Shown here one piece after another: positions 19,060 through 33,917 of a stretch of DNA of 64,000 nucleotides. Position 1 is the stretch's first letter. Each line of letters opens with the position of its first letter. The notes under the pieces are model-generated. The model did not search any database. It saw only the letters and a program-made list of their open reading frames with translations, and had not been told where the DNA came from. This stretch comes from an uncultured Rikenella sp. (lineage in GTDB: Bacteria; Bacteroidota; Bacteroidia; Bacteroidales; VadinHA17). Made by a program: the position numbers and the translations under genes. The stretch lies in contig CAYYEH010000004.1 of NCBI GenBank assembly GCA_964470815.1, forward strand, positions 16,442 through 80,441, read 5' to 3'.

Positions 19060-19443
19060 TCAGAGTTCATCTACTTCCACTATTTCAAACGGGACCTGCA
19101 GTATGGCCTTGAAGTCCCTCCCGGCATCACGCATGTTATCATCGCCGTTCTCGCAATACCACCTGATAAGCACATCACTGTCAGACAGGTAGATCCTCTC
19201 AAAACGCTTGAAAAGCGCATGTATCCTGTTTGAAGAACTGGTATTGAAAAACTCGAACCTGACGCTGAGCACTGTTCTTTCGGCAGGCCTGCTGCCATAC
19301 TTTTCCACATATTGAAGCAGGGGTCCATAGAAACTGTTTGAGTTCTCGGGTATTGACTTGCCCCTCATCTCAAACAGCCCGCGCTCAGGGTCAAAATTTA
19401 CCGACGGGGTTTTGGAGGTCTCCTTGATATCTATTTTTTCCAT
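19060..19443 (-). CDS. DUF1987 / SiaC-family protein
   Basis: Translation from ATG 19443 reads MEKIDIKETSKTPSVNFDPERGLFEMRGKSIPENSNSFYGPLLQYVEKY...FEFFNTSS. This is the characteristic DUF1987 opening and about 127-aa size. The 18 upstream residues in the ORF track are probably not translated. Confidence 0.7.
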   Translation of the reverse strand: MEKIDIKETSKTPSVNFDPERGLFEMRGKSIPENSNSFYGPLLQYVEKYGSRPAERTVLSVRFEFFNTSSSNRIHALFKRFERIYLSDSDVLIRWYCENGDDNMRDAGRDFKAILQVPFEIVEVDEL

Positions 19444-19547
19444 ATATGTGAACCGGCAGCAGAGTATAAATTTATGGATTTCCTCCAATATAGACAAATC
19501 ACATGCCTGTGTTGAAAAATTCCCGGAAAATTAACACCTCTTTATGC

Positions 19548-19590: not shown

Positions 19591-22308
19591 ATGATCAGTT
19601 TGGCCATGCACATTAAACGACTGTCTGTCAGTGCTATAATAGTTATTTCTTTCATTTCTGCGGCCTTTGCCGGTGACGTTACGGTTACCGGCACGGTATC
19701 AGACCGCGAAGGTTCGCCCATAATGAATGCAAGAGTCTCTTTCTTTCTGAATTCCAGGGAGTTCAGGGTCTCAACCGGAACTGACGGAAGGTATGCGGTT
19801 AAGATCACGGGATCATACAGTGATGTAGCGGGCGAATTCGTTGCAGGCACTCCGTACCCCAACCCCTTTGACAACAGCGTAAATATCCCATTTATTATCA
19901 ACACTTCCGGAGATGTGATGCTCACCATTTACAACCTGGCCGGGGAGAAGGTAAGGGTTATGGTTTTTCCGGACGTGACAGCGGGAAGTTACAATGTTGT
20001 ATGGGACGGTTGCGGGCAGAACAATGCGCCAATGAGTGCCGGGCTGTACATCTATGCCATAGCTTTCCGGGGCAGGTCCTACAGCGGCAGGCTGGTCAAG
20101 GCTTCCTCAGACGGGTCAATTTCCTCCGGAAGCGGGCTGGAGCCGGTGATGTTGCCGCCCGGTGAACCCATCCCTGAGCCTTCGCTTCGTTTTCCTGTAA
20201 CATCAGAAGTAACTGCCCGGGGCTTTTATCCGGTGAGGCTTACAGACATAACCCTTGCTGCTGACACGGTTATAGACTTCGTTCTTACGACAAGCCGCTC
20301 CATGCCTTTTACCGTGGCCGGAGATTATATTGCCAGGTTTATCGGTAATGATTATGAGCCTATGATTCTCAAGGGGGTTAATCTCGGCTCGTCGCCTCCG
20401 GGTTACTTTCCGGGCGAGATAGCATATGCCATCACAGCCGAGACATATAAGAGATGGATTGAACGGATGGCAGAAGCAGGCTTCAATACCGTCAGGGTTT
20501 ACACTCTTCATCCGCCGGTCTTCTATGAGAAGCTGGCCGAGCACAACCAGCGTCATCCCGACAGGCCCCTTCTTCTCTTCCAGGGTATATGGCTTGAGGA
20601 GGTTGAGGACGGAACGGATCCCTTAAGCTATGATCTCATCAGGCGCCGGCAGGCCTTCAGCTCGGAGATAGCTGAGGTGATAGACTGTATCCATGGAAAT
20701 GGTGACATTGCATTCAGGTACGGCAAATCTTACGGTATCTATAAAACCGATGTCTCGCAATGGACAGCAGGTTATATCATTGGCCGTGAGGTTGCTCCGC
20801 AGGAGATAGATTCCACCAATAAGTTCCACCCGGGAACCATTTCCTATTCCGGCACCCGGTTCAGCATCAGCGGCAGGAGTGCTTCGGAGGCATTCATTAC
20901 CGAAATGCTTGACAGGGTGGTTGTCTTTGAGGAGAACGAGTATTCATCCAGCAGGCCTGTAAGTTTTTCAAGCTGGCCGACCCTTGACCCTCTGGAACAC
21001 CCTACCGAGATATACACTGACGAGGATGTGGCATCATTTGATATCACACGGATAACACGCAACGGAGGGCCGGGGCTGTTTGCCAGCTACCATGCCTATC
21101 CCTATTATCCGAACTTCATCAGCCAGGAGCCGTCATACCTGGGATACAATGACAGCCAGGGTCCCAACAGTTATCTGGGTTACCTGACGGCCATGAAAAA
21201 TCATTACTCGGATATGCCACTGGTGATAGCCGAGTTTGGCGTACCTTCAAGCTGGGGCAGCGCACACCAGTCATACAGTTCAATGCACCATGGCGGATAC
21301 TCCGAGATACAGCAGGGGGAAAAGAACATGCGAATGATGCATAACATGCTTGACGCCGGTTGCGCCGGAGGATTTATGTTTGCCTGGATGGACGAATGGT
21401 TCAAACGGACCTGGATAGTGCTTTACCAGGAGGCCTATGGGGTGGATGCCGGGGGAGAAACAATTCCAACACGACAGCTGTGGCATAACGAGACCTCTCC
21501 GGAACAGTGCTTCGGCCTGCTCGCATTCGAGCAGAAGAACAGGCCTGACTTCGTCCCTTACCTCACCGATAACCCCGCCGGTCCGCTGAATTCAGTCAGG
21601 GCCACTCATGACGAAGGATTCCTCTACCTTGAGATAAACACTGCAGCCGACCTGGTTCCGACGGATGAATTCATGGTGGCATTTGACACCTACCGGGGCA
21701 ACACAGGTGAATCAACCCTGCCGGGCGGTATTACCACAGGCAACAGGGCAGAGTTTTTGCTTACCTTCACCCTTGAGGATGACACGGCACTGCATCATGT
21801 GACAGAGGCATACGATATGAACGGTCTCACGGTGCGGTTCAATCTCACTGAACCGGAGCAGCAGTTCAGGAGCACAAACACCGACGGGGCACCCTGGAAG
21901 GTGATGAGATGGACCAATGACGGCTTTGAGCTTACCTACCATGACATAGGCAAGGTTCCCGTTGAGCATTCTTCAACCTTCACCGAAGGCAACAGGGCAT
22001 CTGTAGCCTGGAACGGCAGGAAAATAACCATCAGGCTTCCATGGACCATGCTCCATTTCTTTGATCCCACACAGATGACTGTCAATGACGGGGCTGTATC
22101 ATATGACGGTGGTTATAACTTCGAGATTATCACAGCCCAGTCTGACGGTATTGCCGTCTCAGTATGGCACAAAGGGGTGGTCACCAATGCCATGAACAGG
22201 TACAGCTGGCCCAGGTGGCTCCTGGTTCCGCAGACCATAGAAAGGGAAAAAGCCTCGCTTCATATCATTGAGGAGGGATTGAGAGCGATACCTGATCTGG
22301 TTGATTAA
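19591..22308 (+). CDS. Secreted multidomain protein: CarboxypepD_reg-like + FlgD-Ig/T9SS-CTD-like beta-sandwich + putative clan GH-A (beta/alpha)8 glycoside hydrolase + C-terminal beta-rich region
   Basis: 905 aa with a signal peptide. VTVTGTVSDREGSPIMNARV is CarboxypepD_reg-like. PYPNPFDNSVNIPF...LTIYNLAGEKV...AGSYNVVWDG...GLYIY is FlgD-Ig/Por_Secre_tail-like (nt 19852..20103). The TIM-barrel-like core has GVNLG, FNTVRVYT, YIIGREV (candidate acid/base) and VIAEFGVPSSWG (candidate nucleophile). The GH assignment rests on motif resemblance only. Confidence 0.55.
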   Translation: MISLAMHIKRLSVSAIIVISFISAAFAGDVTVTGTVSDREGSPIMNARVSFFLNSREFRVSTGTDGRYAVKITGSYSDVAGEFVAGTPYPNPFDNSVNIPFIINTSGDVMLTIYNLAGEKVRVMVFPDVTAGSYNVVWDGCGQNNAPMSAGLYIYAIAFRGRSYSGRLVKASSDGSISSGSGLEPVMLPPGEPIPEPSLRFPVTSEVTARGFYPVRLTDITLAADTVIDFVLTTSRSMPFTVAGDYIARFIGNDYEPMILKGVNLGSSPPGYFPGEIAYAITAETYKRWIERMAEAGFNTVRVYTLHPPVFYEKLAEHNQRHPDRPLLLFQGIWLEEVEDGTDPLSYDLIRRRQAFSSEIAEVIDCIHGNGDIAFRYGKSYGIYKTDVSQWTAGYIIGREVAPQEIDSTNKFHPGTISYSGTRFSISGRSASEAFITEMLDRVVVFEENEYSSSRPVSFSSWPTLDPLEHPTEIYTDEDVASFDITRITRNGGPGLFASYHAYPYYPNFISQEPSYLGYNDSQGPNSYLGYLTAMKNHYSDMPLVIAEFGVPSSWGSAHQSYSSMHHGGYSEIQQGEKNMRMMHNMLDAGCAGGFMFAWMDEWFKRTWIVLYQEAYGVDAGGETIPTRQLWHNETSPEQCFGLLAFEQKNRPDFVPYLTDNPAGPLNSVRATHDEGFLYLEINTAADLVPTDEFMVAFDTYRGNTGESTLPGGITTGNRAEFLLTFTLEDDTALHHVTEAYDMNGLTVRFNLTEPEQQFRSTNTDGAPWKVMRWTNDGFELTYHDIGKVPVEHSSTFTEGNRASVAWNGRKITIRLPWTMLHFFDPTQMTVNDGAVSYDGGYNFEIITAQSDGIAVSVWHKGVVTNAMNRYSWPRWLLVPQTIEREKASLHIIEEGLRAIPDLVD

Positions 22309-22322
22309 TAAAGCCTGGGGCC

Positions 22323-23729
22323 CTAAGACTTCTTCTTGTTCTGGAATCCGCTTCTCTCGGCTTTGCCCCACCCTTTCTTGCCCCGCAGTGATTCAAGATT
22401 ACCCCGGACGGCGAAGTAGGTATGAACCGGGTAGAAGAATGGTTCAAGCATTGCGGTGCCTATCAGTCTCAGTACATCCCTTTTTCTCCGGTATTTGTGG
22501 AATGTGATCTCCTCAAACAGCACGGCCCAGGTGGTCAGGCTCACCGCGAAGCTGTACACGAACAGGAACAGCAGCAGGAAGAACGGCCAGTTAAGGGCGC
22601 CCGAAACAGCAAGGTAGATTGAATAAACGATACCAAGGAAGGCGATAAGCGGGGCAGCCCATTCGAAGAGGAGCCAGTACGGATATCCGAGCAGGCCCAG
22701 TCTGCCGTAACGGGTATTCAGCATCATCTTGCGATGTGACCAGAGTGATTCTATCAGGCCTCTTGTCCATCTCGTGCGTTGCTTGCGCATTGACTTCAGG
22801 TCGGAGGGCACCTCTGTCCAGCAGAGGGGGTCAGGTATATAGGTGACTTCGTACTTCTGCTTATGTTCAGCCATGTAGCGTCTCATTCTCAGCACCAGTT
22901 CCATGTCCTCGCCTACGGTCTTGACATTGTAACCTCCGGCCCTGATGACCGTCTCACGGTCAAACATGCCCATGGCGCCGGAAATGAGCATGAGTCCGTC
23001 GAGGTGACTCCATGCCATACGGCCGAGCAGGAATGCACGGGTGTAATCAAGAACCTGAAGTCTGGGAAGGAATTTCTTCGGAAGGTTTATCTGACGGATA
23101 TGACCACGTTCAATGTCGCAGGAATTGACAATCCGGATCACGCCTCCGGTGCCGATGACCTTTTTTTCCTTCTCCTCAAGGAATGGCTTGACGAGTTTAA
23201 GTATTGAATCAGGCTCGATAATCGAATCAGCATCGATAGTAACGATAAGATTGCTGCGGCTGATATTGATTCCGGCATTGAGTGAATCAGCCTTTCCTCC
23301 GTTATTCTTATCAATTACTGTCAGCCTGTTGTAGGCGGGATCCTTTGACCGGTAAACACCCCTGATTCTCTCGCATGGTATCCTGTAGTCAAAATAGTAG
23401 TTAACCCTGACAAGTTCATAGGCATCCCTTATCTTTTCAAAAGTGCCGTCGGTTGAGCCGTCGTTGACGATGATCACCTCAAAGTTGTTATAGTAGAGAG
23501 AAAGAAGGGTCCGGACGTTGTCAATGATGGTCTTGCCTTCATTATAGGCCGGAGCGATGATGGTGATCCTCGGGCTGAGTGGAGAGAGCACCAGTGAGTT
23601 GTAGTTTACGTAACTGTTCTTGCGCAGGTACTTTCTCAGCGCCAGGGCTGAGTGTATGCCGAGCAGCAGGTATGACCCGAAGAGTACGAGGGTCAGGTAG
23701 AATATCAGATGTGCAAAGATAAATCCCAT
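22323..23729 (-). CDS. Processive family-2 glycosyltransferase (PgaC/IcaA/cellulose-synthase-like polysaccharide synthase)
   Basis: 468 aa. N-terminal TM, IIAPAYNE, VNDGSTDGT, DADS (DxD), VGEDMEL (GED/TED), QRTRWTRG (QxxRW) and 3-4 C-terminal TM helices. Confidence 0.88.
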   Translation of the reverse strand: MGFIFAHLIFYLTLVLFGSYLLLGIHSALALRKYLRKNSYVNYNSLVLSPLSPRITIIAPAYNEGKTIIDNVRTLLSLYYNNFEVIIVNDGSTDGTFEKIRDAYELVRVNYYFDYRIPCERIRGVYRSKDPAYNRLTVIDKNNGGKADSLNAGINISRSNLIVTIDADSIIEPDSILKLVKPFLEEKEKKVIGTGGVIRIVNSCDIERGHIRQINLPKKFLPRLQVLDYTRAFLLGRMAWSHLDGLMLISGAMGMFDRETVIRAGGYNVKTVGEDMELVLRMRRYMAEHKQKYEVTYIPDPLCWTEVPSDLKSMRKQRTRWTRGLIESLWSHRKMMLNTRYGRLGLLGYPYWLLFEWAAPLIAFLGIVYSIYLAVSGALNWPFFLLLFLFVYSFAVSLTTWAVLFEEITFHKYRRKRDVLRLIGTAMLEPFFYPVHTYFAVRGNLESLRGKKGWGKAERSGFQNKKKS

Positions 23730-23734
23730 GGTAT

Positions 23735-25474
23735 TCAGTATATCCTGCGGTCAAGCACGTGCCTGACTATGATGTTATAGTTCTTGTACTCTGATTTCAT
23801 CACCTTGACAAGGGCCTGCACACCCACCTCGCCCATGTTCTCGATGGCCTTCACAGCTTCAATCTGAAGCTGAACATCATCCTCCTTGTCAAGTACCAGC
23901 CTGAGGAATCCCAGCATGGAGGTTTCGGGCATTTTGCCCATTGATTTCACTATTTCCAGGCAGTTGTTGTACTCCTGGAACTTATACATGCGCTTCATAG
24001 TATCCAGGGTGGTCCGCATGTCAAGATCCCCTGCCACCTCCACTGCAAGCCTGCTCACGCGGGAATCCCGGTGAAGCAGCGCCTTCCTGATCTCGGGCTC
24101 AGCCTCCTTCTGCCTGAACTCCCTTATCATCCTGAGGGCAAACATCACCACCGTCGGGTTTTCGGAAGAGAGCCATCTCTGGAAGTCAGGGACAGGCAGG
24201 TCATGCTGAATGATGAGGTCATGAAGGGTTATCTGTTCCCACAGGGAGAATGGCCTCCTCAGATGCGAAAGGAAATCGAAATGGTCATTCTCGCTGAGCC
24301 TGACAAGTGCAATCTGTGCTTCCATCCTCAGGATCTCGTTCCTGGAGTTGATCACCCTGTACATCTCATCATTGCCTTCACTGATACCCATAAAGGCCAG
24401 CTCCCGAAAACCCTTGATTTTCTTATGCCAGCGACGGCTGCGGGCCCTTGCCAGGGAGTCACTGTCAAGCTCAAGATCCATGTAGAGCTTCATAAGCTTC
24501 TCCCTGGAGTCACCTTTCAGGTTAACGCTGACGTCAATCATCTGATCTATAAGCACCTGCCTGCGGTAGTTGTCAGATGCTATTTTCCTGAACGGATCCG
24601 GGCTGCTGCTTCCGAAAAGGTAATCTATGATCAGAGACTGGTACTGTTCAAGAAGATACTGTCTCAGTTTCGCCTCCCTTTCCATCCTTCGCCTGTTAAG
24701 GAGAATGACGAGGAGAAGTATCAGCATTGTGGCGAATGATGCCAGTATGGCAAAAATCAAGGCATTGACCAGTGCCACGGACTTGCCGAAATAGTTGTAG
24801 CGGTTAAGCCAGGGGCTGTCTCCCCTTAGAAAAAAGAGGTTTCCTATCCCCGGTCTTACAGTTTGTGTTTCTGCAGGTTTTTCTTCAGCCGGAGTTGTCA
24901 TCTGCCAGGTCTCATGCAGCTCTGATACCGGGATGGCTGCTGTTGCAGGTACGGAATCCGTTCTGTCGGCTGAGGCCCGAAAGGGGATATCCTCCCCTGT
25001 CATGGTTCCGGTGCCTGGCAACACCCCTTTTTGAGATTCTGTTTCAGGCTCAGCGGCTTCCGTCAACGTCTCATTATCTGACGAAGTGCTTCTTCCATTT
25101 TCACCCTCGAATGCCACCGGTATGTACAGGCAGGGTGCCTCACCTCTCAGTGCACTGTTGATGAATACCTTGAACAGGCCGGCATCCTCGATGATGTCAA
25201 CAGGCAGACCTGACATTTCAGTTATCTTCCTGCTCAGAGCCTCGGCATTGGCACGCCTGCCGAATGCACCCATCTGGATGGCATAGTTCCCGTTTGCAAG
25301 TGAAACAAGTCCTCCGACGGTAAGCTCGGAAGGGAATGTTGAAAGGACAGGGACGGCAGATCCTGTTCCCTGTGAGCGTACCGATTCATTCCAGCTTTCT
25401 TCAGCTGCAGTGAAGGAGTGCAATGGAAGGGCACCAACGGCCATGGCCAGCAGTATGGTCAGTGTCATTCTCAT
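23735..25474 (-). CDS. Bitopic membrane protein: signal peptide + SPOR-like domain + TM helix + cytoplasmic HEAT-repeat domain
   Basis: 579 aa. The SPOR-like segment is NGNYAIQMGAFGRRANAEALSRKITEMSGLPVDIIEDAGLFKVFI. An acidic/Thr-rich linker follows, then the TM helix ALVNALIFAILASFATMLILLLVILL and about 300 aa of helical repeats (ENPTVVMFALRMIRE, RDSRVSRLAVEVAGD, DVQLQIEAVKAIENMG). Confidence 0.6.
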   Translation of the reverse strand: MRMTLTILLAMAVGALPLHSFTAAEESWNESVRSQGTGSAVPVLSTFPSELTVGGLVSLANGNYAIQMGAFGRRANAEALSRKITEMSGLPVDIIEDAGLFKVFINSALRGEAPCLYIPVAFEGENGRSTSSDNETLTEAAEPETESQKGVLPGTGTMTGEDIPFRASADRTDSVPATAAIPVSELHETWQMTTPAEEKPAETQTVRPGIGNLFFLRGDSPWLNRYNYFGKSVALVNALIFAILASFATMLILLLVILLNRRRMEREAKLRQYLLEQYQSLIIDYLFGSSSPDPFRKIASDNYRRQVLIDQMIDVSVNLKGDSREKLMKLYMDLELDSDSLARARSRRWHKKIKGFRELAFMGISEGNDEMYRVINSRNEILRMEAQIALVRLSENDHFDFLSHLRRPFSLWEQITLHDLIIQHDLPVPDFQRWLSSENPTVVMFALRMIREFRQKEAEPEIRKALLHRDSRVSRLAVEVAGDLDMRTTLDTMKRMYKFQEYNNCLEIVKSMGKMPETSMLGFLRLVLDKEDDVQLQIEAVKAIENMGEVGVQALVKVMKSEYKNYNIIVRHVLDRRIY

Positions 25475-26565
25475 TCCTTTCGTCCGATACCTCTTGTTAT
25501 TCCGACGTTCCCTTCAAACCTGTTGCGGGATGAGGTTGGATTGTATTTTTCGAAAGAATAGCCTGCCCCGATCCTTACCGACCACCAGTGATTTATCTGG
25601 TTGAACCAGGTCATCCTGACAGAAGTTGCCTTCTGTCGTTCAAGGTCAGTAAGTATATCATACGGTTCATCGGGTGCCGTTCCGGTACCCACTGTAAGCT
25701 GGAGATAATCAGTTGTACCGAGGTATCTCCTGGCAGTAATGAAGAATGATGTTGTAACTCCTATCTCCTTAAAATGGAAATATGTCCTTCCCGAGAACCA
25801 GTAACGGCTCAGGTATTTCTCCAGAGAGAATGTGCCGATAAAGATACTATTATCAAAATAGTAATAATTGACGCCCGCAGAAACAGCCAGTCCTGCCGGG
25901 AGAGTCTGCCACAGCTCAAGGGCTGCCCTGTGGCGGGGGAACCAGGGGCCGTCGCTGAAAGCGTAGGCAACATAGGCATAATTTCTTCTGCCAAGTTCGG
26001 GCCATGCTTCGGCGGCGAACTGGAAATCATTGCCGGCGGTGTCTGAAGGAGGGCCTGTATTAAGGTGTCCGTAATTAACCGATGCAGTTGCGGTACCCCA
26101 TGAAAACCGGTGGCCTGCTCCCAGGCTGAACACCTGCCAGAGACGGTCATAAGGCTCACTGTAGGTATCAAAGGAATAGCCGGCCCTGATATCCGTAGGA
26201 GCGGCAATCTGCTGTGCTCTGTCGCGCGACCATCGCCTGATATCGGTAATCGCCCCGAGGGCGTCCGTGTTATCGGGATCAGAAATCAGCAGGGTGTCTA
26301 TCACGGCAGCTCCTTCGTCATACCTTCCCTGCCAGGCTATTATTCTCCCGAGCAGAACCCGTGCGTCGCCAAACTCCGGATATTCCCTGACAAGCCTGCG
26401 GGCTGCCGGTTCCGCCTCCTCATATCTGCCGTCAAACGCCAGCGAACGGATCCTTGAGTACTCCTCTTCGGGGTTGGTTATGGTCTGGGATAATAACAAT
26501 CCGGTTGTCATGATAAACATAACCGCCAGCGAAAGGGTTTTTATCAGTCTTTTGAACTCCATCAT
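25471..26565 (-). CDS. Outer-membrane protein: N-terminal TPR segment + YaiO-family beta-barrel
   Basis: 364 aa with a signal peptide. TPR-like region: SLAFDGRYEEAEPAARRLVREYPEFGDARVLLGRIIAWQGRYDEGAAVIDTLL. The remainder shows the alternating aromatic/hydrophobic pattern of a beta-barrel (IRAGYSFDTY, FSLGAGHRFSWG, YVAYAFSDG, SAGVNYYYF, RIGAGYSFEKY). The YaiO assignment is from memory of the family pattern. Confidence 0.6.
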   Translation of the reverse strand: MMEFKRLIKTLSLAVMFIMTTGLLLSQTITNPEEEYSRIRSLAFDGRYEEAEPAARRLVREYPEFGDARVLLGRIIAWQGRYDEGAAVIDTLLISDPDNTDALGAITDIRRWSRDRAQQIAAPTDIRAGYSFDTYSEPYDRLWQVFSLGAGHRFSWGTATASVNYGHLNTGPPSDTAGNDFQFAAEAWPELGRRNYAYVAYAFSDGPWFPRHRAALELWQTLPAGLAVSAGVNYYYFDNSIFIGTFSLEKYLSRYWFSGRTYFHFKEIGVTTSFFITARRYLGTTDYLQLTVGTGTAPDEPYDILTDLERQKATSVRMTWFNQINHWWSVRIGAGYSFEKYNPTSSRNRFEGNVGITRGIGRKE

Positions 26566-26928
26566 CTAAACAACTGCCACTGCGGCCCTGATTTTCCTGA
26601 GAAGATCATCGGGATCAAAAGGCTTGGTAATGTACCCGCTAACCTTCATTTCACCCGCCTGACGCTGCATCTGAGGATCGCTGAATGCCGACACTATCAG
26701 GACCGGGGTCTGCTTCTTCAGCTCTGTGCGAAGAAACCTTACCACCTCCAATCCGCTGTGATAGGGCATGTGAATGTCAACAATCACCAGGTCAAAATCA
26801 GTCCTTTTCAATGCCTCGATTGCCCTGTTTCCGTCACCTACAGTCACGGGATCATATCCCTCCCGTTCGATGACCACCGACATTGCCCTGGCAGCCAGCT
26901 GATTATCTTCACAGATAAGTATTTTCAT
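26566..26928 (-). CDS. Stand-alone CheY-like response regulator receiver
   Basis: 120 aa, single REC domain (MKILICEDNQ, DLVIVDIHMPYHSG, VLIVSAF, YITKPF). First gene of the GT2 operon. Confidence 0.9.
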   Translation of the reverse strand: MKILICEDNQLAARAMSVVIEREGYDPVTVGDGNRAIEALKRTDFDLVIVDIHMPYHSGLEVVRFLRTELKKQTPVLIVSAFSDPQMQRQAGEMKVSGYITKPFDPDDLLRKIRAAVAVV

Positions 26929-27104
26929 CCTTTCTTCAGTCCTTTAGCCCAGATGCCTTTTATATAATGCTGTCAACAATTCCGACTTGTGTCAGAGGGT
27001 CAAAAATGGCTCTTTTTGCGGCTCCTGCAAAATATTGAAGCCCTCAATTTGACATTTGTTGATAAATCGTTGATAATCCGCCTCCGGGGCATGATTAAAA
27101 AAAA

Positions 27105-30100
27105 TCACAGTTCCCTGATGCGGATATTCCTGAACCGGACCACCGAGCCATGTCCAAGGAACCCTATATGTCCGCCTGAGTTCTTCAGTCCCGGATGTTC
27201 TCTGCCGTCAATGGGTCCGTTGATGATGGCATCAGTCAGGTCTGAGTCGACGATTACAGCACCATTCAGGACCACTTTTATTTTTGTTCCCTTTGCAGTA
27301 ACCTCCTCGTAATTCCATTCACCCACCGGTCTCAGGAATCCCCTCCTGGCCGGTATGACACCGTAAACGGAACCATGATACTGGTATGGTTCAAGTTCCG
27401 AATATATGGATGCAGTGTTATCGAGTATCTGTATCTCCATCCCTGCGTAAGCGGCATCACCTTCAGGAGGGGTCCGGATTCCGAGTCCGTTATTTGCCCC
27501 CGGGGTAAGCTGAAACTCGAACCGGAAGATAAAATCCGAGTACTCCTTTCCGGTGTAGAGATTTCCGCCGCTGTTATTACCCGGCCTGATCACAATCATT
27601 CCATCTTCAACGGCATAGGAAACCTTGTCGCCGATCCACCCATCGAGGTTCATGCCGTTGAAAAGTGATATGAAACCTGCCTCCTTTTCCTTCTCTGTCA
27701 GGTTATACTCTGCCGTATTGATCTCCCTGATATAGATATCCCTGAAAGCAAGGTCGGTTCCATGGGCCTGAAGCTCAATGCTCCCCTTCCTGAATACCGG
27801 AATGGACCTGTCCCAGTAATTTTCCAGGGTGACCTCGTCAGTCACAAGGTCGCCGTTGAGCCATACAGTTACCTTATCTCCCGTCATAAGAATCCTGAAC
27901 GTATTCCATTCACCCGCGGGGTTATCTGCAACCAGGAGAGGCACTGAGGAATTCTTCTGGTTGTTGTACAGGCCTCCCGATCCCACCTGTGCTCCAACGT
28001 CGGTCCGGGATGTATCCCATATCTGTACCTGCGGTGTCCCGCGGAGGTAAATGCCGCTGTCGCCTCCCCTGGTTATCTTCCAGTCGACATACAACTCAAA
28101 GTCACCGTATTCCTTCACGCTGCACAGGTTATCTCCCACTCCGCTGAACCATATCATTCCATCCCTCACGCTCCAGTTTTCAAGCATCTTTCTGTCAGCC
28201 TCCTTTTGTCTGGCAGCCAGTTCCTTTGGCGTCATGGCAGCCCTGGTCACGGGGTTTCCCACCAGTCCTTTCCAGCCGGTAAGGTCATTGCCGTTGAACA
28301 TTGGTTCAAACGACCCGTCGCCGGGAAGGTTAAGCGATTGTATTGCTTCACCTGCTGCACTCCTCACCTCTTCCGAAGGGTCAGAAAGGTAAGGTGTAAT
28401 GAAGAATTCCGTCTGCCGTATTTCCAGGGAGCCGGCAAGGGCGACCATTCCCGCCCTGGCGCCTGGATCTGCGGCATATGGTGCCATATCCTTAATCATC
28501 AGCAGCTTTCGTTCGGGCTTCAGTCTGGCTGCAGATACCATTCTCATGTATGCATCAAAGGCCGGCATCCCGAAGGTTTTATTCCCTGAGGCGGTTATCT
28601 CACGGAGTATCTTTGCCGACGAGATGTCATTCCAATGAGTCAGAACGTCAAAGCAGACATCCCTGGTGATGGCGTCGCCGTTCTCAAACTCAGCGGCCAC
28701 CCTTTTCAGCGCCTCACCGCCCCCGGTAGCTGACAGAAGGGGGATCAGCTTGAGCCTGTCACGGCTTCTGTCCATGGCTTCAAGGATAAGTGCCGATCTT
28801 GCTGACGGGTCTTTATGGTCCATGGCTGCAGCGAGAATGGCACGCTGAAGTTCGGCCACCTCTGCCTTCTCCCCGGTTGCTTCAAGCAGTCCTATTATCT
28901 CCGGCTGGTCATTATAGGAGGCCAGTGCTGTGAGTGAAGTGATGGCGGCTGCCCTAATACCATAATCAGGAGATGAGGTAAAAGAAAAAACATCCCTGAA
29001 ATATCTCCTGTCACCGGACCAGGCCAGCAGCCTGACAAGGGTGACTGTTGATTGCCCTTTTGATGCCGGCAGTGCAGCAGCTATCTTACTTATGCCAGTG
29101 CTGTCAAGTATGGCTGTCAGTGTCTCTGAAGCAGTACGGTGTCCATCCTCAAGGTCATATTTCATTATCCAGGAAAGGATCTGGTCAACAGCTCCCGGGC
29201 CCTTCAGGCGGGCCAGGGCGGAGACGGCCGCAGAAGATACTTCCGGGGAGGGATCATCAAGTGCCTTTATTATCAGAGGCGCTGCCAGCTGATCTCCTCT
29301 TTCGCCAAGCATGTAAAGTATCCCGGACTTTGCAGGGGCCGAGACCTTTGAATATCTTTTTATCCATTTCATGGTAGCCTCGCTGCCGGGTATCCCTGAA
29401 GCCAGACGCAACGCACCTCCCCTGATGGCCACATCCGTATCGCCGGCAGCATCAAGCAGCATGCCCAGGGCACCGTTCCCTTTAACTGCCGTGATAACAC
29501 TCATTGCAGCAAGTCTCTGGCTGGCAGTCTCAGGTGTCATGCTTGCATCAATCACCTGTTTTGTTATACGTTCCATCTTCTTCACCTCTCCCCCAAGTCC
29601 GATGTTCTTTGCATAAAGCAGGAGAGCCTGAACCGCACCGGTCGGCTCCCACCGGTACGAGGCAGCAGCAGCGGCGCCGTTGAGAAAATCCCCTGCCTCA
29701 GGAACGCCGGTAGTGGCAATGGCATAGAGAGCAGCTGATTTTTCGGGGATGCTTCCCCTGGAATACCACTGCATATATGTTTCTGCTGATTTCCCGGGGC
29801 GGGTCTCCGCAAGAGCAACCATCGCCTGGGCAGCACACGGGCAATCATCCTGCCTCAGGGCCGAATAAAGAAGGCTGGCAGCAGCTTCGGTGCCAACAGA
29901 CTGCAGGACGATCACGGCATCCTCACACATATCGGCAGAGGTTACGTACTCCGCCAGTTCCTTCACGGCCAGTTCCGATCCGATAAGGTTTAACTGCCTC
30001 ATGAAGAATGATCTCACCTCCCGGTCAGTGCTTCTTTTCATAAAATCAATACATTGTTTCTCCCACTGACGCTTCCTGGCCTCATCAGTATCAGCAGAAA

Positions 30101-30371
30101 GGCGGGCAGTAAGAGCCGACACCGCATACCTCGCCCTTAAATCGTCACCGGTTCCCGCAGGCACTATCTGTCCGCAGATCATTCCCCTCCCCTCTTCTCC
30201 CAGTGAATACATTTCCTCCATCAGTCGTGAGGCAAGCTCAGGGTTGTCAGCAGGCATTCTGGCCAGCAGGTCAGCAACCTTTGTCCCGGTAGTTCTCAAA
30301 TCCTGGGCGGAAAGCGCTGTGGTTACAAGCAGCAATGCCGCAATGGTTAGAAGAGTTCTTATTCTGTTCAT
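27105..30371 (-). CDS. Secreted HEAT-repeat protein with two C-terminal DUF1080 (3-keto-disaccharide hydrolase-like) domains
   Basis: 1088 aa with a signal peptide and about 650 aa of HEAT-like repeats. Two DUF1080 copies follow: FEPMFNGNDLTGWKG...WSVRDGMIWF...GDFELYVDWKI...GDSGIYLRG, and FISLFNGMNLDGWIGD...YAVEDGMIVI...SDFIFRFEFQL...NNGLGIR. Confidence 0.8.
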   Translation of the reverse strand: MNRIRTLLTIAALLLVTTALSAQDLRTTGTKVADLLARMPADNPELASRLMEEMYSLGEEGRGMICGQIVPAGTGDDLRARYAVSALTARLSADTDEARKRQWEKQCIDFMKRSTDREVRSFFMRQLNLIGSELAVKELAEYVTSADMCEDAVIVLQSVGTEAAASLLYSALRQDDCPCAAQAMVALAETRPGKSAETYMQWYSRGSIPEKSAALYAIATTGVPEAGDFLNGAAAAASYRWEPTGAVQALLLYAKNIGLGGEVKKMERITKQVIDASMTPETASQRLAAMSVITAVKGNGALGMLLDAAGDTDVAIRGGALRLASGIPGSEATMKWIKRYSKVSAPAKSGILYMLGERGDQLAAPLIIKALDDPSPEVSSAAVSALARLKGPGAVDQILSWIMKYDLEDGHRTASETLTAILDSTGISKIAAALPASKGQSTVTLVRLLAWSGDRRYFRDVFSFTSSPDYGIRAAAITSLTALASYNDQPEIIGLLEATGEKAEVAELQRAILAAAMDHKDPSARSALILEAMDRSRDRLKLIPLLSATGGGEALKRVAAEFENGDAITRDVCFDVLTHWNDISSAKILREITASGNKTFGMPAFDAYMRMVSAARLKPERKLLMIKDMAPYAADPGARAGMVALAGSLEIRQTEFFITPYLSDPSEEVRSAAGEAIQSLNLPGDGSFEPMFNGNDLTGWKGLVGNPVTRAAMTPKELAARQKEADRKMLENWSVRDGMIWFSGVGDNLCSVKEYGDFELYVDWKITRGGDSGIYLRGTPQVQIWDTSRTDVGAQVGSGGLYNNQKNSSVPLLVADNPAGEWNTFRILMTGDKVTVWLNGDLVTDEVTLENYWDRSIPVFRKGSIELQAHGTDLAFRDIYIREINTAEYNLTEKEKEAGFISLFNGMNLDGWIGDKVSYAVEDGMIVIRPGNNSGGNLYTGKEYSDFIFRFEFQLTPGANNGLGIRTPPEGDAAYAGMEIQILDNTASIYSELEPYQYHGSVYGVIPARRGFLRPVGEWNYEEVTAKGTKIKVVLNGAVIVDSDLTDAIINGPIDGREHPGLKNSGGHIGFLGHGSVVRFRNIRIREL

Positions 30372-30390: not shown

Positions 30391-31659
30391 TTACATATGC
30401 CATTCGCCCCTCATGGGCTGGTCTATGAGTGCATTGGCAGCATCATCGCCAATGAATTGCTGGGTGACAGGGTCAAATTTCAGGTTCCTGCCAAGCCGCA
30501 GTGCCACAACCCCCATATTCACAATGGTGCATGACCGGTGGCCGTTCTCCTCGTTAAGCGCAAACGGTTTCCTTGTCTTTACTGACTCTGAGAAGATTGT
30601 TACCCGGGGCTGCGGGTCAGGAAGCCTGCTTAAAAGTTGAGGGAGATCCGGGATATCAGAGAGGAAACCCTTGAATATTTTTCCATGAGGGCCTTCTATA
30701 TAGGCTGCATCCTTATCGCGGTTTTCGCCGTCAAGGATTATCCGGCAGCCGTCATCGTAAGTAAAGGTAATCCTTCGCCATGAACCGACTGCGTCATAAT
30801 GCTGCTGCGGGGCGTCAATCTCCACGGAAACGGGGCTGGTATGGTCCTTGTCAAGGAGGTACTGCACGGGGTCAATATAATGCTGTCCCATGTCACCCAG
30901 TCCTCCCCCGTCATAATCCCAGTATCCCCGGAAGTTCTCATGAACCCTGAGTTTATTGTATGGTTTGTATGGTGCCGGCCCCAGCCACATGTCATAATCG
31001 AGTCCGGCGGGAACCGGTTCGGGCTGAAGGTCAGTTTTTCCGCTCCAGTAGAATTTCCAGTCATAGCCGGTAATACCACTGATTGTCACCTTTAAGGGCC
31101 ATCCGAGCACACCGCTGGCTACGATCTTTTTCAGCGGTTTCACTGTAGTTCCAAGGCCGTAGAATTGCCCGGTAAAGCGGAACCATGTATTAAGCCTGAA
31201 CATCCTGCCGTTTGCCTTCACAGCTTCAACCAGCCTCTTACCCTCGCCTATGGTCCGGGTCATCGGTTTTTCGCACCAGATATCTTTTCCCGCTTCGGCG
31301 GCCATCTTAGCTATCACGCCATGCCAGTGAGGCGGGGTGGCTATGTGAACTATATCAATGTCAGGCCTGGAAATCAGCTCCCGGAAGTCGCGGTAACCCT
31401 TTACGCCGCTGCCAGCCCTGTCAAGGGCCCTCTGCAGATGTGAGGCATCAACATCGCAAACGGCAAGAAGGCGTGTATTTTCATAATTGAAATGTCCGAG
31501 GCCCATTCCCCCGACACCGACGATACCCTTTGTCAACTGGTCACTCGGTGGGATGAAACCTCTGCCGCCAAGCACATGCCGCGGAACGATAGTCAGGCCA
31601 AGGCAGACCGACATACTTCTTTTGATAAAACCTCTCCGGGAGCCATACAGCTTTTCCAT
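30391..31659 (-). CDS. Gfo/Idh/MocA-family oxidoreductase with twin-arginine signal
   Basis: 422 aa. TAT motif GSRRGFIKRSMSVCLG, Rossmann segment GIVGVGGMGLGH and the EKP motif (IWCEKPM). Confidence 0.85.
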   Translation of the reverse strand: MEKLYGSRRGFIKRSMSVCLGLTIVPRHVLGGRGFIPPSDQLTKGIVGVGGMGLGHFNYENTRLLAVCDVDASHLQRALDRAGSGVKGYRDFRELISRPDIDIVHIATPPHWHGVIAKMAAEAGKDIWCEKPMTRTIGEGKRLVEAVKANGRMFRLNTWFRFTGQFYGLGTTVKPLKKIVASGVLGWPLKVTISGITGYDWKFYWSGKTDLQPEPVPAGLDYDMWLGPAPYKPYNKLRVHENFRGYWDYDGGGLGDMGQHYIDPVQYLLDKDHTSPVSVEIDAPQQHYDAVGSWRRITFTYDDGCRIILDGENRDKDAAYIEGPHGKIFKGFLSDIPDLPQLLSRLPDPQPRVTIFSESVKTRKPFALNEENGHRSCTIVNMGVVALRLGRNLKFDPVTQQFIGDDAANALIDQPMRGEWHM

Positions 31660-31865: not shown

Positions 31866-33917
31866 ATGGAAACAATAATGAAAAAAGTCATTGTGTCTCT
31901 TATGACGCTTGTTGCCTTTGTTCCCCTCAAATCCCAGGATCATTTCAAGTTTGACCATATTGATCCTGCTTACCTGAAAATGGACGTCTGTCCGTCTGAC
32001 TCTGCTGCTCAGGCCTTCATTATCTTCAATGAGCAGTCATGCATAACACGATATCACAAGACCACTGCCAGTTTCACTGACGGCAGAATGAACAACGGTC
32101 CTGAATACCGGAATGAAATCCAGATTCACCGGGCTGTCAAGATCCTTGATAATGAAGCCACTCATTGGGGCAACTTCACTTTTGTTTTCAACAAAAAACT
32201 GGAGAAGATAGTGTCTGTCAAAGGTTACACTTATAATCTTGACGGAAACAAGATTGTCAAGTCGAAGCTCGAGCGCAGCCAGATTATCTACGAGGATATA
32301 AGTTCAACAAGGGAAAGGATGAAGATAAGCATGCCACAGGTAAAGAAAGGGTCTGTCGTGGAGATTGAGTTAAATTTGACATCAGATAATTTCTACTCTC
32401 TGGGGCCGTTCCCGATGCAATTCACCATTCCTGTTGAAAAAAACATCCTTATGGTGAAGATGTTTGAATATTATAATTATAACAGGATTATCAAGGGGTA
32501 CTTCGGGGTAAGCCCGAAGCGTTCAAGCACGCGGGTTGAAGTACCCATAACAGTTACAGAGAGCACCTTCAGTGGCAGAACAACCAGCCAGAATAAAATC
32601 ACCTATCTAGAGTTATCTGAGGAATATGCAATGGATAATGTTCCGGCATTCCCGCTGGAATCATATCTTACCACCCCTGACAATTACCTGGCAAGTATCA
32701 GGTTTGAACTTGCATTTACAAAGTTCCCGAATACCCCCCAGAAGCATTTCAACAGTTCATGGGAGTCACTTACGAAAGTTCTGATTGAGGATCCCAATTT
32801 CGGACAACAGTTGAGGAATACGGGATTTCTCGGGGAACTTGCCGGAAAGCTCCGGTCAGGGTCCGACGGCCAGGCAGCCCTTTTACAGGCATGTTATGAA
32901 CATATCAGGGACAATATTACCTGTGACAACAAAACAGGAATATTCTGTGAAAACGGCATACGTGAAGTCTTAAAAAACGGGAAAGGGGATGTCCAGGGCG
33001 TAAATTTGCTTCTCACGGCATTGGTCAGGGAGGCCGGCCTGAGGGCATGGCCGGTAATCCTCAGCACCAGGAGCAACGGGATGATCCAGCCGATATACCC
33101 GTCAATTGACGATTTCAACTATGTGATCTGCCTCGCCGAGGCAGACGGAAAGAGGATATTGCTGGATGCTTCAGACAGGTACCTTACGATGAATCTGCTG
33201 GATCCGGCGTGCCTGAACGATAAGGGAAGAATAATTGATCAGACCGAAACAGGATGGATTGAACTTACCAATCCCGAAAACTCATATAAGATCACAACAA
33301 CATGGAATGTTGAGCTTGGGGACGATGGCGTTGCACACGTTAAAGCTGAAGAGCTATATGAAGACATTGCGGCCTACATGCAACGTGACCGTATCAGAGA
33401 CGCTGGAGGTTTTGAAAAGTACATTGACGGAATAAATCATCCTGATAACGGATTTACAATTTTATCTTCAGGTATCGAGAACCAGGAGGATAAGTCCAAA
33501 CCTGTCAGGCAGACGATGGAACTGGACCTTGACAGGGGATATAAACAGGGTGACCTTTTCATTTTCCTTCCGCTGTTCACTGAAGCGCTGGGTGAAAATC
33601 CCTTTAAGCTTAAGAAAAGGGAATACCCGGTGGAATTTGAATTTCCTGCAACCGAGAAAGTTGTGATCAGGACTAAAATACCTGAAGGATATGAAATTGA
33701 GAGTCTCCCTCAGGGCAAGTCATATAATCTGCCAGGCGGTTCAATTGTATATTGGTACAGGATAACCGGAGAAAATAACGAAATAGTTGCAGAATACAGT
33801 TACCAGATAAAACGGATGGTATTTCCGACTCATGAATATGAGAACCTGAAGGACCTGTACAGGGTAATAACTGAAAGTCAGAATGAGAGTGTTGTCCTTA
33901 AAAGGTCAGCAGAATGA
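31866..33917 (+). CDS. DUF3857 / transglutaminase-like / DUF3858 protein, catalytic Cys replaced (predicted inactive paralogue)
   Basis: 683 aa with a signal peptide. The transglutaminase-core position reads GKGDVQGVNLLLTALVREAGLRAW, with Val (32991..32993) where the nucleophile Cys is expected. Confidence 0.65.
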   Translation: METIMKKVIVSLMTLVAFVPLKSQDHFKFDHIDPAYLKMDVCPSDSAAQAFIIFNEQSCITRYHKTTASFTDGRMNNGPEYRNEIQIHRAVKILDNEATHWGNFTFVFNKKLEKIVSVKGYTYNLDGNKIVKSKLERSQIIYEDISSTRERMKISMPQVKKGSVVEIELNLTSDNFYSLGPFPMQFTIPVEKNILMVKMFEYYNYNRIIKGYFGVSPKRSSTRVEVPITVTESTFSGRTTSQNKITYLELSEEYAMDNVPAFPLESYLTTPDNYLASIRFELAFTKFPNTPQKHFNSSWESLTKVLIEDPNFGQQLRNTGFLGELAGKLRSGSDGQAALLQACYEHIRDNITCDNKTGIFCENGIREVLKNGKGDVQGVNLLLTALVREAGLRAWPVILSTRSNGMIQPIYPSIDDFNYVICLAEADGKRILLDASDRYLTMNLLDPACLNDKGRIIDQTETGWIELTNPENSYKITTTWNVELGDDGVAHVKAEELYEDIAAYMQRDRIRDAGGFEKYIDGINHPDNGFTILSSGIENQEDKSKPVRQTMELDLDRGYKQGDLFIFLPLFTEALGENPFKLKKREYPVEFEFPATEKVVIRTKIPEGYEIESLPQGKSYNLPGGSIVYWYRITGENNEIVAEYSYQIKRMVFPTHEYENLKDLYRVITESQNESVVLKRSAE

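Follow-up and report, generated by a model that had tools for sequence, protein, structure and literature searches.

Can a bacterium synthesize, export and regulate an exopolysaccharide with a handful of genes that resemble the established biofilm machineries only in part? This question is raised by a minus-strand operon of four genes in a 64,000-nt stretch of DNA (hereafter the window) from an uncultured Rikenella sp. (Bacteroidales; VadinHA17; assembly GCA_964470815.1, contig CAYYEH010000004.1, positions 16,442-80,441 of the forward strand). The genes code successively for a CheY-like receiver (REC), a YaiO-type outer-membrane protein with tetratricopeptide repeats (TPR), an inner-membrane protein with a SPOR domain and HEAT repeats (hereafter the HEAT protein) and a glycosyltransferase of family 2 (GT2). 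Synthase-dependent systems such as those for cellulose, poly-N-acetylglucosamine (PNAG), Pel, alginate and Nfr represent the main model of biofilm matrix building in Gram-negative bacteria and have, to our knowledge, all been described as gated by cyclic di-GMP (c-di-GMP). An earlier note on this DNA had described the operon and interpreted it as a new kind of synthase-dependent secretion system; what it had observed is confirmed, and its interpretation is supported in part. The four minus-strand genes with junctions of 0 (REC/YaiO), -4 (YaiO/HEAT) and +5 bp (HEAT/GT2) are recovered in the coordinates of the open reading frames (ORFs), and each of the domain calls made for YaiO, SPOR, HEAT and GT2 passes in Pfam/NCBIfam. 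Judged from comparative sequence analysis, the module would be a synthase-dependent exopolysaccharide synthesis and export system of the Fibrobacterota-Chlorobiota-Bacteroidota (FCB) group under phosphorelay control, a reading to which we assign a probability of about 0.6; the polymer, its export and the target of REC are what we infer.

That these genes constitute a genuine and conserved module, in an arrangement far beyond chance, is evident from their distribution. An exhaustive search of 1.84 billion representatives retrieved 1,499 clusters (50% identity) related to the HEAT protein, and look-ups of clusters yielded hardly any taxon other than Bacteroidota/Bacteroidia and Ignavibacteria. 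Equally, a scan of GTDB with one genome per species, for which a narrower alignment (A2) was used as the alignment of 79 sequences (A1) was too diverse for search patterns, identified HEAT-protein relatives in 329 cases. Of these, the 80 closest were examined, and they derive without exception from uncultured Bacteroidales (53-77% identity). All ORFs of these loci were translated and searched with the proteins of the window, and presence was counted as the number of loci with the gene among loci with room for it on the contig. YaiO was present in 73/73 and GT2 in 74/74 loci, REC preceded YaiO as its upstream neighbour in 72/73, and a convergent gene for an exported protein (p905) in 69 of 70. 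The sole exception for REC (locus L080) harbours a REC gene split in two by a frameshift, which, if counted, raises the number to 73/73. The spacing is also maintained, with junctions of -4 or -1 between YaiO and HEAT and of +3 to +8 between HEAT and GT2. The more divergent half of the 80 loci lack the remaining neighbours seen in the window, namely the genes for the 1088-aa HEAT/3-keto-disaccharide hydrolase protein, the GFO oxidoreductase, SiaC and the Gate transporter, and the five module genes are found together.

Conservation extends to distant lineages. The contexts of nine members with 26-37% identity in the HEAT protein (about 30% in the locus from Ignavibacteria) were fetched singly, and REC (about 120 aa), YaiO, HEAT and GT2 are kept in all nine, despite altered order and accessory genes. 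The arrangement REC-TPR/YaiO-HEAT-GT2 is seen in L097. Further receivers are found in L093 (REC-x-REC-TPR/YaiO-HEAT-GT2), in L089 (REC/Hpt-REC-TPR/YaiO-SPOR/HEAT-GT2) and in L084, which also codes for a protein of 345 aa without assignment (REC-REC-TPR/YaiO-unknown345-SPOR/HEAT-GT2), and the Ignavibacteria locus L086/87 reads hybrid kinase/Hpt-REC-REC-YaiO-HEAT-GT2, with a YaiO protein that lacks TPR and a HEAT protein that lacks a periplasmic domain. SPOR is encoded by a separate gene in L088 (REC-TPR/YaiO-SPOR-HEAT-GT2). The remaining loci are L091 (hybrid kinase-REC-HEAT-GT2-sulfatase/TPR-TPR/YaiO), L092 (REC-TPR/YaiO-CotH-HEAT-GT2-REC-REC/SpoIIE) and L096 (REC-TPR/YaiO-CotH-LysM/HEAT-GT2). 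The HEAT gene is located directly upstream of the GT2 gene in every locus examined. The earlier note had named a lack of co-occurrence as one point on which its proposal could fail; this is clearly not the case, with the genes co-occurring in 72-74 of 73-74 Bacteroidales loci and in 9/9 distant ones. Among the accessory genes, one with a CotH (atypical kinase-like) domain is inserted between YaiO and HEAT in two loci (L092:3419-4759 and L096:7582-8964). In L091 (12489-14888), a 799-aa protein that combines a sulfatase/alkaline-phosphatase-superfamily domain with TPR is encoded between GT2 and YaiO, a position that, in analogy to BcsG-type transferases, would be fitting for a polymer-modifying enzyme.

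With respect to synthesis, the GT2 matches Glycos_transf_2, Glyco_tranf_2_3, Glyco_trans_2_3 and Chitin_synth_2 of Pfam (E about 1e-23) and has the full set of features of a processive glycosyltransferase, that is, D, DxD, (G/T)ED and QxxRW together with transmembrane segments of its own. As the earlier note had recognized, these motifs (DGS90, DAD166, GED273 and QRTRW317) are flanked by hydrophobic segments (residues 4-30 and 353-403). The best NCBIfam match is PgaC_IcaA (TIGR03937; E 1.7e-38), and the alignment with Escherichia coli PgaC (25-26% identity; E 1e-27 with 25% over 325 aa) as well as with BcsA extends through QxxRW; the protein stays below every NCBIfam equivalog cutoff. It is the best conserved member of the module, with 49-59% identity to the module GT2s of the nine distant lineages, and its family is distinguished by two specific insertions; at the C-terminus, a cytoplasmic tail is conserved as well (GN.D...WG.M.R.GF).

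For export, an outer-membrane barrel and a periplasmic TPR, the latter unusually short, are encoded in the same operon. The earlier note had described a signal peptide, a TPR-like segment and a YaiO-type barrel, and this layout is substantiated by profile searches: a short TPR (residues ~32-120, with matches to TPR_16 and TPR_19) follows the signal peptide and precedes the barrel (124-360), which is recognized by PF19413 at residues 126-358 (E 9.6e-37, 127.1 bits vs a cutoff of 23.9) and by TIGR04390 (E 8e-27, 94.6 bits vs a cutoff of 32). Homologues are labelled YaiO family by NCBI and JGI, and distant ones terminate in ..GYYF or ..SYLF, an ending of the type that usually serves as the C-terminal signal of outer-membrane proteins. 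An AlphaFold2 (AF2) model built with 42 homologues (pLDDT 86) predicts a signal helix, five TPR-like helices, 14 strands and a helix in a loop (301-307). Foldseek searches with this model return porins in general, with PelB (9h80_M) at rank 2 (TM-score 0.44) and BcsC (6tzk) at rank 10 (TM-score 0.41), both matches covering TPR and barrel; general porins score about equally, and OmpG and CymA fit best by root-mean-square deviation (rmsd) and strand count, the lowest rmsd being that of the 14-strand OmpG. The predicted architecture resembles the TPR-porins of exopolysaccharide systems, and the YaiO barrel would then stand in place of the PgaA/BcsC/AlgE porin. Literature searches found no function for YaiO.

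The HEAT protein is the third conserved component. Profile searches agree with the earlier description of a SPOR-like domain, a single transmembrane helix and about 300 aa of HEAT repeats; from the N-terminus, the protein consists of a signal-like sequence, the periplasmic SPOR segment, a low-complexity linker, the transmembrane helix and the cytoplasmic HEAT domain. The helix (Kyte-Doolittle peak 2.97) is followed by NRRRMEREAK, in agreement with the positive-inside rule, and because there is a single helix with basic residues behind it, SPOR is placed in the periplasm and HEAT in the cytoplasm. The HEAT assignment is based on HEAT_2 of Pfam (E 5.6e-11) and on the match of the homologue profile to a PBS-HEAT-type alphaRep in the PDB (E 1.7e-46), with W..KG.RE, REAQLALV and F..WEQ as conserved motifs. 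SPOR (PF05036) is matched with E 4e-6 and 27.5 bits vs a cutoff of 21 over profile positions 1-48 of 76; the segment lies between signal peptide and transmembrane helix and passes the gathering score, and it matches the SPOR domain of CwlC (1x60) with E 0.004. Homologues align at residues ~235-578, such that the transmembrane helix and about 340 aa of HEAT are conserved, and a single helix ahead of HEAT is found in nearly all full-length representatives. The periplasmic head, on the other hand, ranges from nothing to about 400 aa. Among 79 representatives, 14 carry SPOR and 6 carry LysM, and others have no head; the Ignavibacteria protein, with 360 aa, has no periplasmic domain. Thus, the earlier account holds for helix and HEAT domain, which constitute the core of the family, and fails for SPOR as a defining part. 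In L088 (8054-8989), SPOR is encoded by a separate gene of 311 aa between YaiO and a short HEAT gene, and is fused to HEAT in the window; the two form a fission/fusion pair, which by sequence points to a functional tie of the SPOR and HEAT parts. SPOR and LysM domains bind glycans that contain N-acetylglucosamine (GlcNAc), and the HEAT protein would stand in place of a co-polymerase.

How would such a system be controlled? The first gene encodes a REC-only protein, as had been noted before, with a match to Response_reg (PF00072, E 1.9e-26) over residues 3-114 of 120; the pocket residues E7/D8, the phospho-acceptor D51, S80 and K102 are all kept, and an output domain is absent. Family searches detected no c-di-GMP receptor, a component of the synthase-dependent class, and REC sits in the operon instead; GGDEF, EAL, PilZ and MshEN find no match in the module proteins, the scanned window proteins or the gene lists of the nine distant loci, a result compatible with a cryptic c-di-GMP site. 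In many Bacteroidota, c-di-GMP enzymes are scarce or not known to be encoded, and a phosphorelay as substitute would therefore be sensible. Genes of phosphorelays adjoin several of the distant modules, namely a hybrid kinase with Hpt (L086), a hybrid kinase (L091), a REC-Hpt protein (L089) and a REC-SpoIIE protein (L092). By analogy, the best regulatory precedent is found in Myxococcus xanthus, where EpsW~P, a response regulator with a single domain, activates EpsZ by direct binding (PMC12802240). In this case, a phosphorylated single-domain regulator binds a membrane biosynthetic enzyme and turns on polysaccharide synthesis post-translationally, the logic proposed here for the module. The pathway differs, however, in that it is Wzx/Wzy-dependent, targets a phosphoglycosyl transferase and lacks a HEAT partner, and an interaction within the module is suggested by analogy.

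As side observations, the module has a gene for a SiaC-family regulatory phosphoprotein as its neighbour both in the window and in close relatives, and a second SiaC-family gene is found about 2 kb upstream of REC in the distant LysM-type locus (L096:3616-3990). Together with the REC-SpoIIE (PP2C) gene that adjoins GT2 in L092, these genes could be a partner-switch input or a coincidence.

Within the reading of a phosphorelay-controlled synthase, the specific model in which REC gates synthesis through the HEAT protein is put forward tentatively, and a different wiring has to be considered. REC might act directly on GT2 in the manner of EpsW and EpsZ, or serve as a phosphate sink or connector, with the HEAT protein being a structural co-subunit or chaperone devoid of signalling. 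The direct enzyme contact in M. xanthus and the conserved cytoplasmic tail of the GT2 family speak in its favour, as do the two REC genes of several loci, which are common in phosphate-sink arrangements. Yet neither target of REC has positive support, and the HEAT domain, for which another role is not apparent, offers the largest conserved cytoplasmic surface of the module; we regard this alternative as rather unlikely.

A hydrolase completes the established systems, as the earlier note had listed. It named none in this locus, where the conserved p905 is encoded convergently to GT2, outside the operon it had delimited. p905 consists of a signal peptide, Ig-like domains (30-264), a TIM barrel (~283-600) and, at the C-terminus, beta domains. 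For residues 200-905 there is no sequence match in Pfam, CAZy or the PDB; in the PDB, the single sequence and a profile alike hit nothing beyond the FlgD-like Ig domain near the N-terminus. The AF2 model (40 homologues; pLDDT 73, pTM 0.72) shows beta-sandwiches and a (beta/alpha)8 barrel, and has disordered loops; searched with it, Foldseek ranks beta-glucuronidases, galactosidases and mannosidases of glycoside hydrolase (GH) family 2 at the top of the PDB matches (E about 1e-13). Two glutamates are invariant in 40 sequences, E400 three residues past a strand (392-397) and E548 in IAEFG on another (544-549), and in the model, at its pLDDT of 73, their placement corresponds to the 4/7 pattern of clan GH-A. 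The model thus makes p905 a candidate GH-A-like polymer hydrolase. Names such as "T9SS type A sorting domain-containing protein" or "FlgD Ig-like", given to p905 homologues by NCBI and JGI, are misleading; p905 was rejected as cargo of the type IX secretion system (T9SS), the TIGR04183 match being located at residues 89-170 and not at the C-terminus.

The convergent position is occupied by other proteins elsewhere. In L080 (11094-13157), a protein with PKD and a right-handed beta-helix, another carbohydrate-active fold, replaces p905, and in four distant loci (L086:10093-11244, L089:12703-13887, L093:11184-12362 and L097:12303-13484) a transmembrane-anchored family of about 390 aa is found, the members of which share 42-46% identity. 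This family has no match in Pfam or the PDB and no copy in the window, and the possibility that it represents a diverged p905 was discarded (hhalign probability 0.4%). We read the convergent slot past the GT2 stop as the putative place for a polymer-processing enzyme.

Does the polymer leave the cell? SPOR domains home in on denuded peptidoglycan at the septum, LysM domains bind peptidoglycan, and a wall-anchored machine that is controlled by a developmental phosphorelay might produce a glycan retained in the envelope or at the division site (for instance a sheath, a polymer at the septum or the poles, or a glue for aggregates) instead of a released exopolysaccharide. The occurrence of SPOR and LysM in the above fractions of the family, the extra SPOR proteins encoded in L088 and L089, the short TPR and the resemblance of the hybrid kinase and Hpt relays to developmental circuits would all suit such a product. 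Many HEAT members, among them the short protein of Ignavibacteria, lack a periplasmic domain, however, and the constant presence of an outer-membrane barrel speaks for transit across the outer membrane; we consider a retained glycan unlikely. That GT2 produces a glycolipid of the membrane or a glucan of the periplasm next to a YaiO protein with an unrelated transport or structural role would suit the failed equivalog cutoffs, the lack of a characterised YaiO function in literature searches and the neighbourhood of YaiO and a YaiP without a clean QxxRW in E. coli, but is highly improbable in view of QRTRW, GED, DAD and the C-terminal transmembrane bundle as hallmarks of processive synthases (PgaC, BcsA) and of the strict cross-phylum linkage of barrel, GT2 and secreted carbohydrate-active enzyme, which is hard to explain otherwise.

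Several observations weigh against a synthase-dependent export system under phosphorelay control. The evidence as a whole is comparative and consists of genes, their linkage and predicted folds, and the carriers found are all uncultured metagenome-assembled genomes or metagenome contigs with no phenotype attached. With respect to the exit route, the TPR, with its roughly 90 aa, falls far short of those in PgaA, BcsC and PelB and cannot alone span the periplasm, the Ignavibacteria barrel (257 aa) lacks it altogether, and the 14-strand barrel is smaller than the PgaA, BcsC and AlgE porins of exopolysaccharide systems with their 16-18 strands; in the model, the loop helix 301-307 could plug the barrel. 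SPOR is matched weakly and over part of its profile. The fold matches of p905 have low TM-scores (about 0.24), as is expected with several domains that are oriented differently, and its acid/base motif reads RE and not NE as usual in clan GH-A. Finally, no kinase gene is found in the scanned parts of the window, and the target of REC may be the HEAT protein, GT2 or something else.

If the module is a phosphorelay-controlled synthase-dependent system, its mechanism may be envisaged as follows. GT2 would polymerise a nucleotide sugar at the cytoplasmic face and thread the chain through its own transmembrane bundle; the product would most likely be a beta-linked hexosamine or hexose homopolymer, since PgaC, NodC and chitin synthases are the nearest characterised relatives. 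The HEAT protein would be the fixed partner of GT2, its transmembrane helix packing against the synthase, its periplasmic SPOR (elsewhere LysM) domain binding a glycan that contains GlcNAc (peptidoglycan or the growing chain) and thereby tying the machine to the wall, and its cytoplasmic HEAT solenoid providing a docking platform. REC, phosphorylated by a kinase/Hpt relay encoded elsewhere, would bind as REC~P to the HEAT domain or GT2, turn on synthesis post-translationally and so take the place of the c-di-GMP receptors of Bcs, Pga, Pel, Alg and Nfr. The chain would exit through the 14-strand YaiO barrel with the short TPR facing the periplasm, and p905 would trim or clear the polymer, as do BcsZ, PgaB, PslG and PelA. 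In its most specific and equally tentative form, this proposal amounts to an undescribed class of secretion machine particular to Bacteroidota/Ignavibacteriota, in which REC~P docks on the HEAT domain of a SPOR/LysM wall-anchored co-synthase and gates a PgaC-like GT2 whose product exits via a minimal YaiO porin.

The coordinates of the module and of neighbouring features are collected in Table 1. A scan for sigma-70 promoters and terminators found nothing above background, the sigma-70 model being uninformative for Bacteroidota. The 1088-aa gene with HEAT and 3-keto-disaccharide hydrolase domains and the GFO_IDH_MocA oxidoreductase gene next to it share synteny with the module in close relatives only, and are probably an unrelated sugar-oxidation pair; for the same reason these two genes, the SiaC gene and the Gate gene were discarded as members of the module. 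The glycyl-radical enzyme, the activase and the S46 peptidase fit a strictly anaerobic Bacteroidales host that ferments peptides and sugars. Two adjacent genes code for DUF3857 proteins.

Table 1. Positions of module components and neighbouring features in the window
Feature	Positions	Strand	Remarks
GT2, membrane-embedded, processive-synthase type	22323-23729	-	468 aa
SPOR-TM-HEAT bitopic inner-membrane protein (TM, transmembrane)	23735-25474	-	579 aa
Cytoplasmic HEAT domain of the 579-aa protein	23738-24700	-	residues 259-579, conserved family core
TM helix of the 579-aa protein	24701-24769	-	residues ~236-258
SPOR-like segment of the 579-aa protein	25160-25297	-	residues 60-105
TPR/YaiO outer-membrane protein	25471-26565	-	364 aa
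REC, single-domain CheY-like receiver	26566-26928	-	120 aa, first in the operon
Intergenic region ahead of REC, presumed promoter region	26929-27104	-	176 bp, only sizeable gap in the gene string
p905, convergent exported protein	19591-22308	+	905 aa
SiaC-family regulatory phosphoprotein	19060-19497	-	
HEAT repeats and two 3-keto-disaccharide hydrolase domains	27105-30371	-	1088 aa, PF06439
GFO_IDH_MocA oxidoreductase	30391-31659	-	
DUF3857 protein	31866-33917	+	
DUF3857 protein	33914-35806	+	also with transglutaminase-like core
Pyruvate formate-lyase (PFL)-like glycyl-radical enzyme	42096-44465	-	
BcrAD/BadFG-type activase with DUF2229	56254-60501	+	1415 aa
S46 peptidase	60455-62623	-	

The module is widespread in uncultured FCB-group bacteria and uncharacterised; with about 1,500 clusters of the HEAT protein and relatives in 329 GTDB species it is no curiosity of one genome. 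Literature searches that combined YaiO with polysaccharide, HEAT with synthase-dependent, and SPOR and HEAT with GT2 found no description of it. Should the export reading be true, the architecture of synthase-dependent systems would be more modular than the proteobacterial examples suggest, as a YaiO barrel, a transmembrane HEAT subunit and a CheY-like switch can be accommodated, and phosphorelay control would stand in for c-di-GMP control. Equally, it would open up matrix biology in anaerobic Bacteroidales and Ignavibacteria of digesters, sediments and soils.

How does the module relate to the known systems? By sequence comparison, it is not an orthologue of either Pga or Nfr. The likeness to Pga is the closest on the side of the synthase, as PgaC/IcaA is the nearest curated family and DGS, DxD, (T/G)ED and QRxRW are shared; likewise, an outer-membrane protein composed of TPR and barrel, the exporter in Pga and the putative one here, and a small number of genes within a single operon are common to both, and p905 is a candidate for the glycoside hydrolase activity that Pga has. 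On the other hand, GT2 scores 132.7 bits where TIGR03937 needs 422.3, and no match to the families of PgaD, of the PgaB carbohydrate esterase family 4 (CE4) deacetylase/GH153 or of PgaA_barrel was found in the module proteins or p905. PgaA matches PF21197, unlike the module barrel, and its TPR comprises about 500 aa, compared with the ~90 aa that precede the YaiO-type barrel with 14 predicted strands. Furthermore, the module has a transmembrane HEAT subunit and REC, and no c-di-GMP input was detected.

The earlier note had regarded the module as a fifth kind of synthase-dependent system; this count does not stand, as NfrB/NfrA/YbcH of E. coli was already published in 2021 as a further system (PMC8669469). 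Nfr likewise combines a GT2 synthase with a TPR/barrel outer-membrane protein and a periplasmic accessory protein, and demonstrates that there are compact systems of this sort besides Bcs, Pga, Pel and Alg. Its components differ, however, since the barrel of NfrA belongs to the NfrA_C family and YbcH to DUF4434, neither of which matches the module proteins, and NfrB, which is of the GT2-MshEN type, matches the module GT2 with E 0.033 only. BcsC and PelB share with the model of the YaiO protein a stack of TPR helices followed by a barrel and are among the best fold matches, but are distinguished by strand count, the minimal TPR of the module and the lack of a sequence-level relation.

The vicinity of yaiO and yaiP in E. 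coli, which the earlier note had mentioned, is correct: yaiS-yaiP-yaiX-yaiO are located on one strand of the K-12 chromosome (380069-384616), and code for a deacetylase (YaiS), a GT2 (YaiP), an acyltransferase (YaiX) split by IS2A and the YaiO protein. As in the module, a YaiO-family barrel (PF19413) is encoded together with a membrane GT2. The cluster lacks REC and HEAT, though, and has the disrupted acyltransferase and the deacetylase instead; YaiP is 29% identical to the module GT2 over the GT-A part only and retains DGS and DAD, whereas a canonical GED is absent and a degenerate WRRWRRW replaces QxxRW, and E. coli YaiO has no TPR and no BLAST match to the module barrel. By these sequence relations, the yai cluster is only a remote relative of the module and may be a cousin system that has decayed in K-12, and the module, if it indeed exports a polysaccharide, would provide a first role for the orphan YaiO family, E. 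coli YaiO included.

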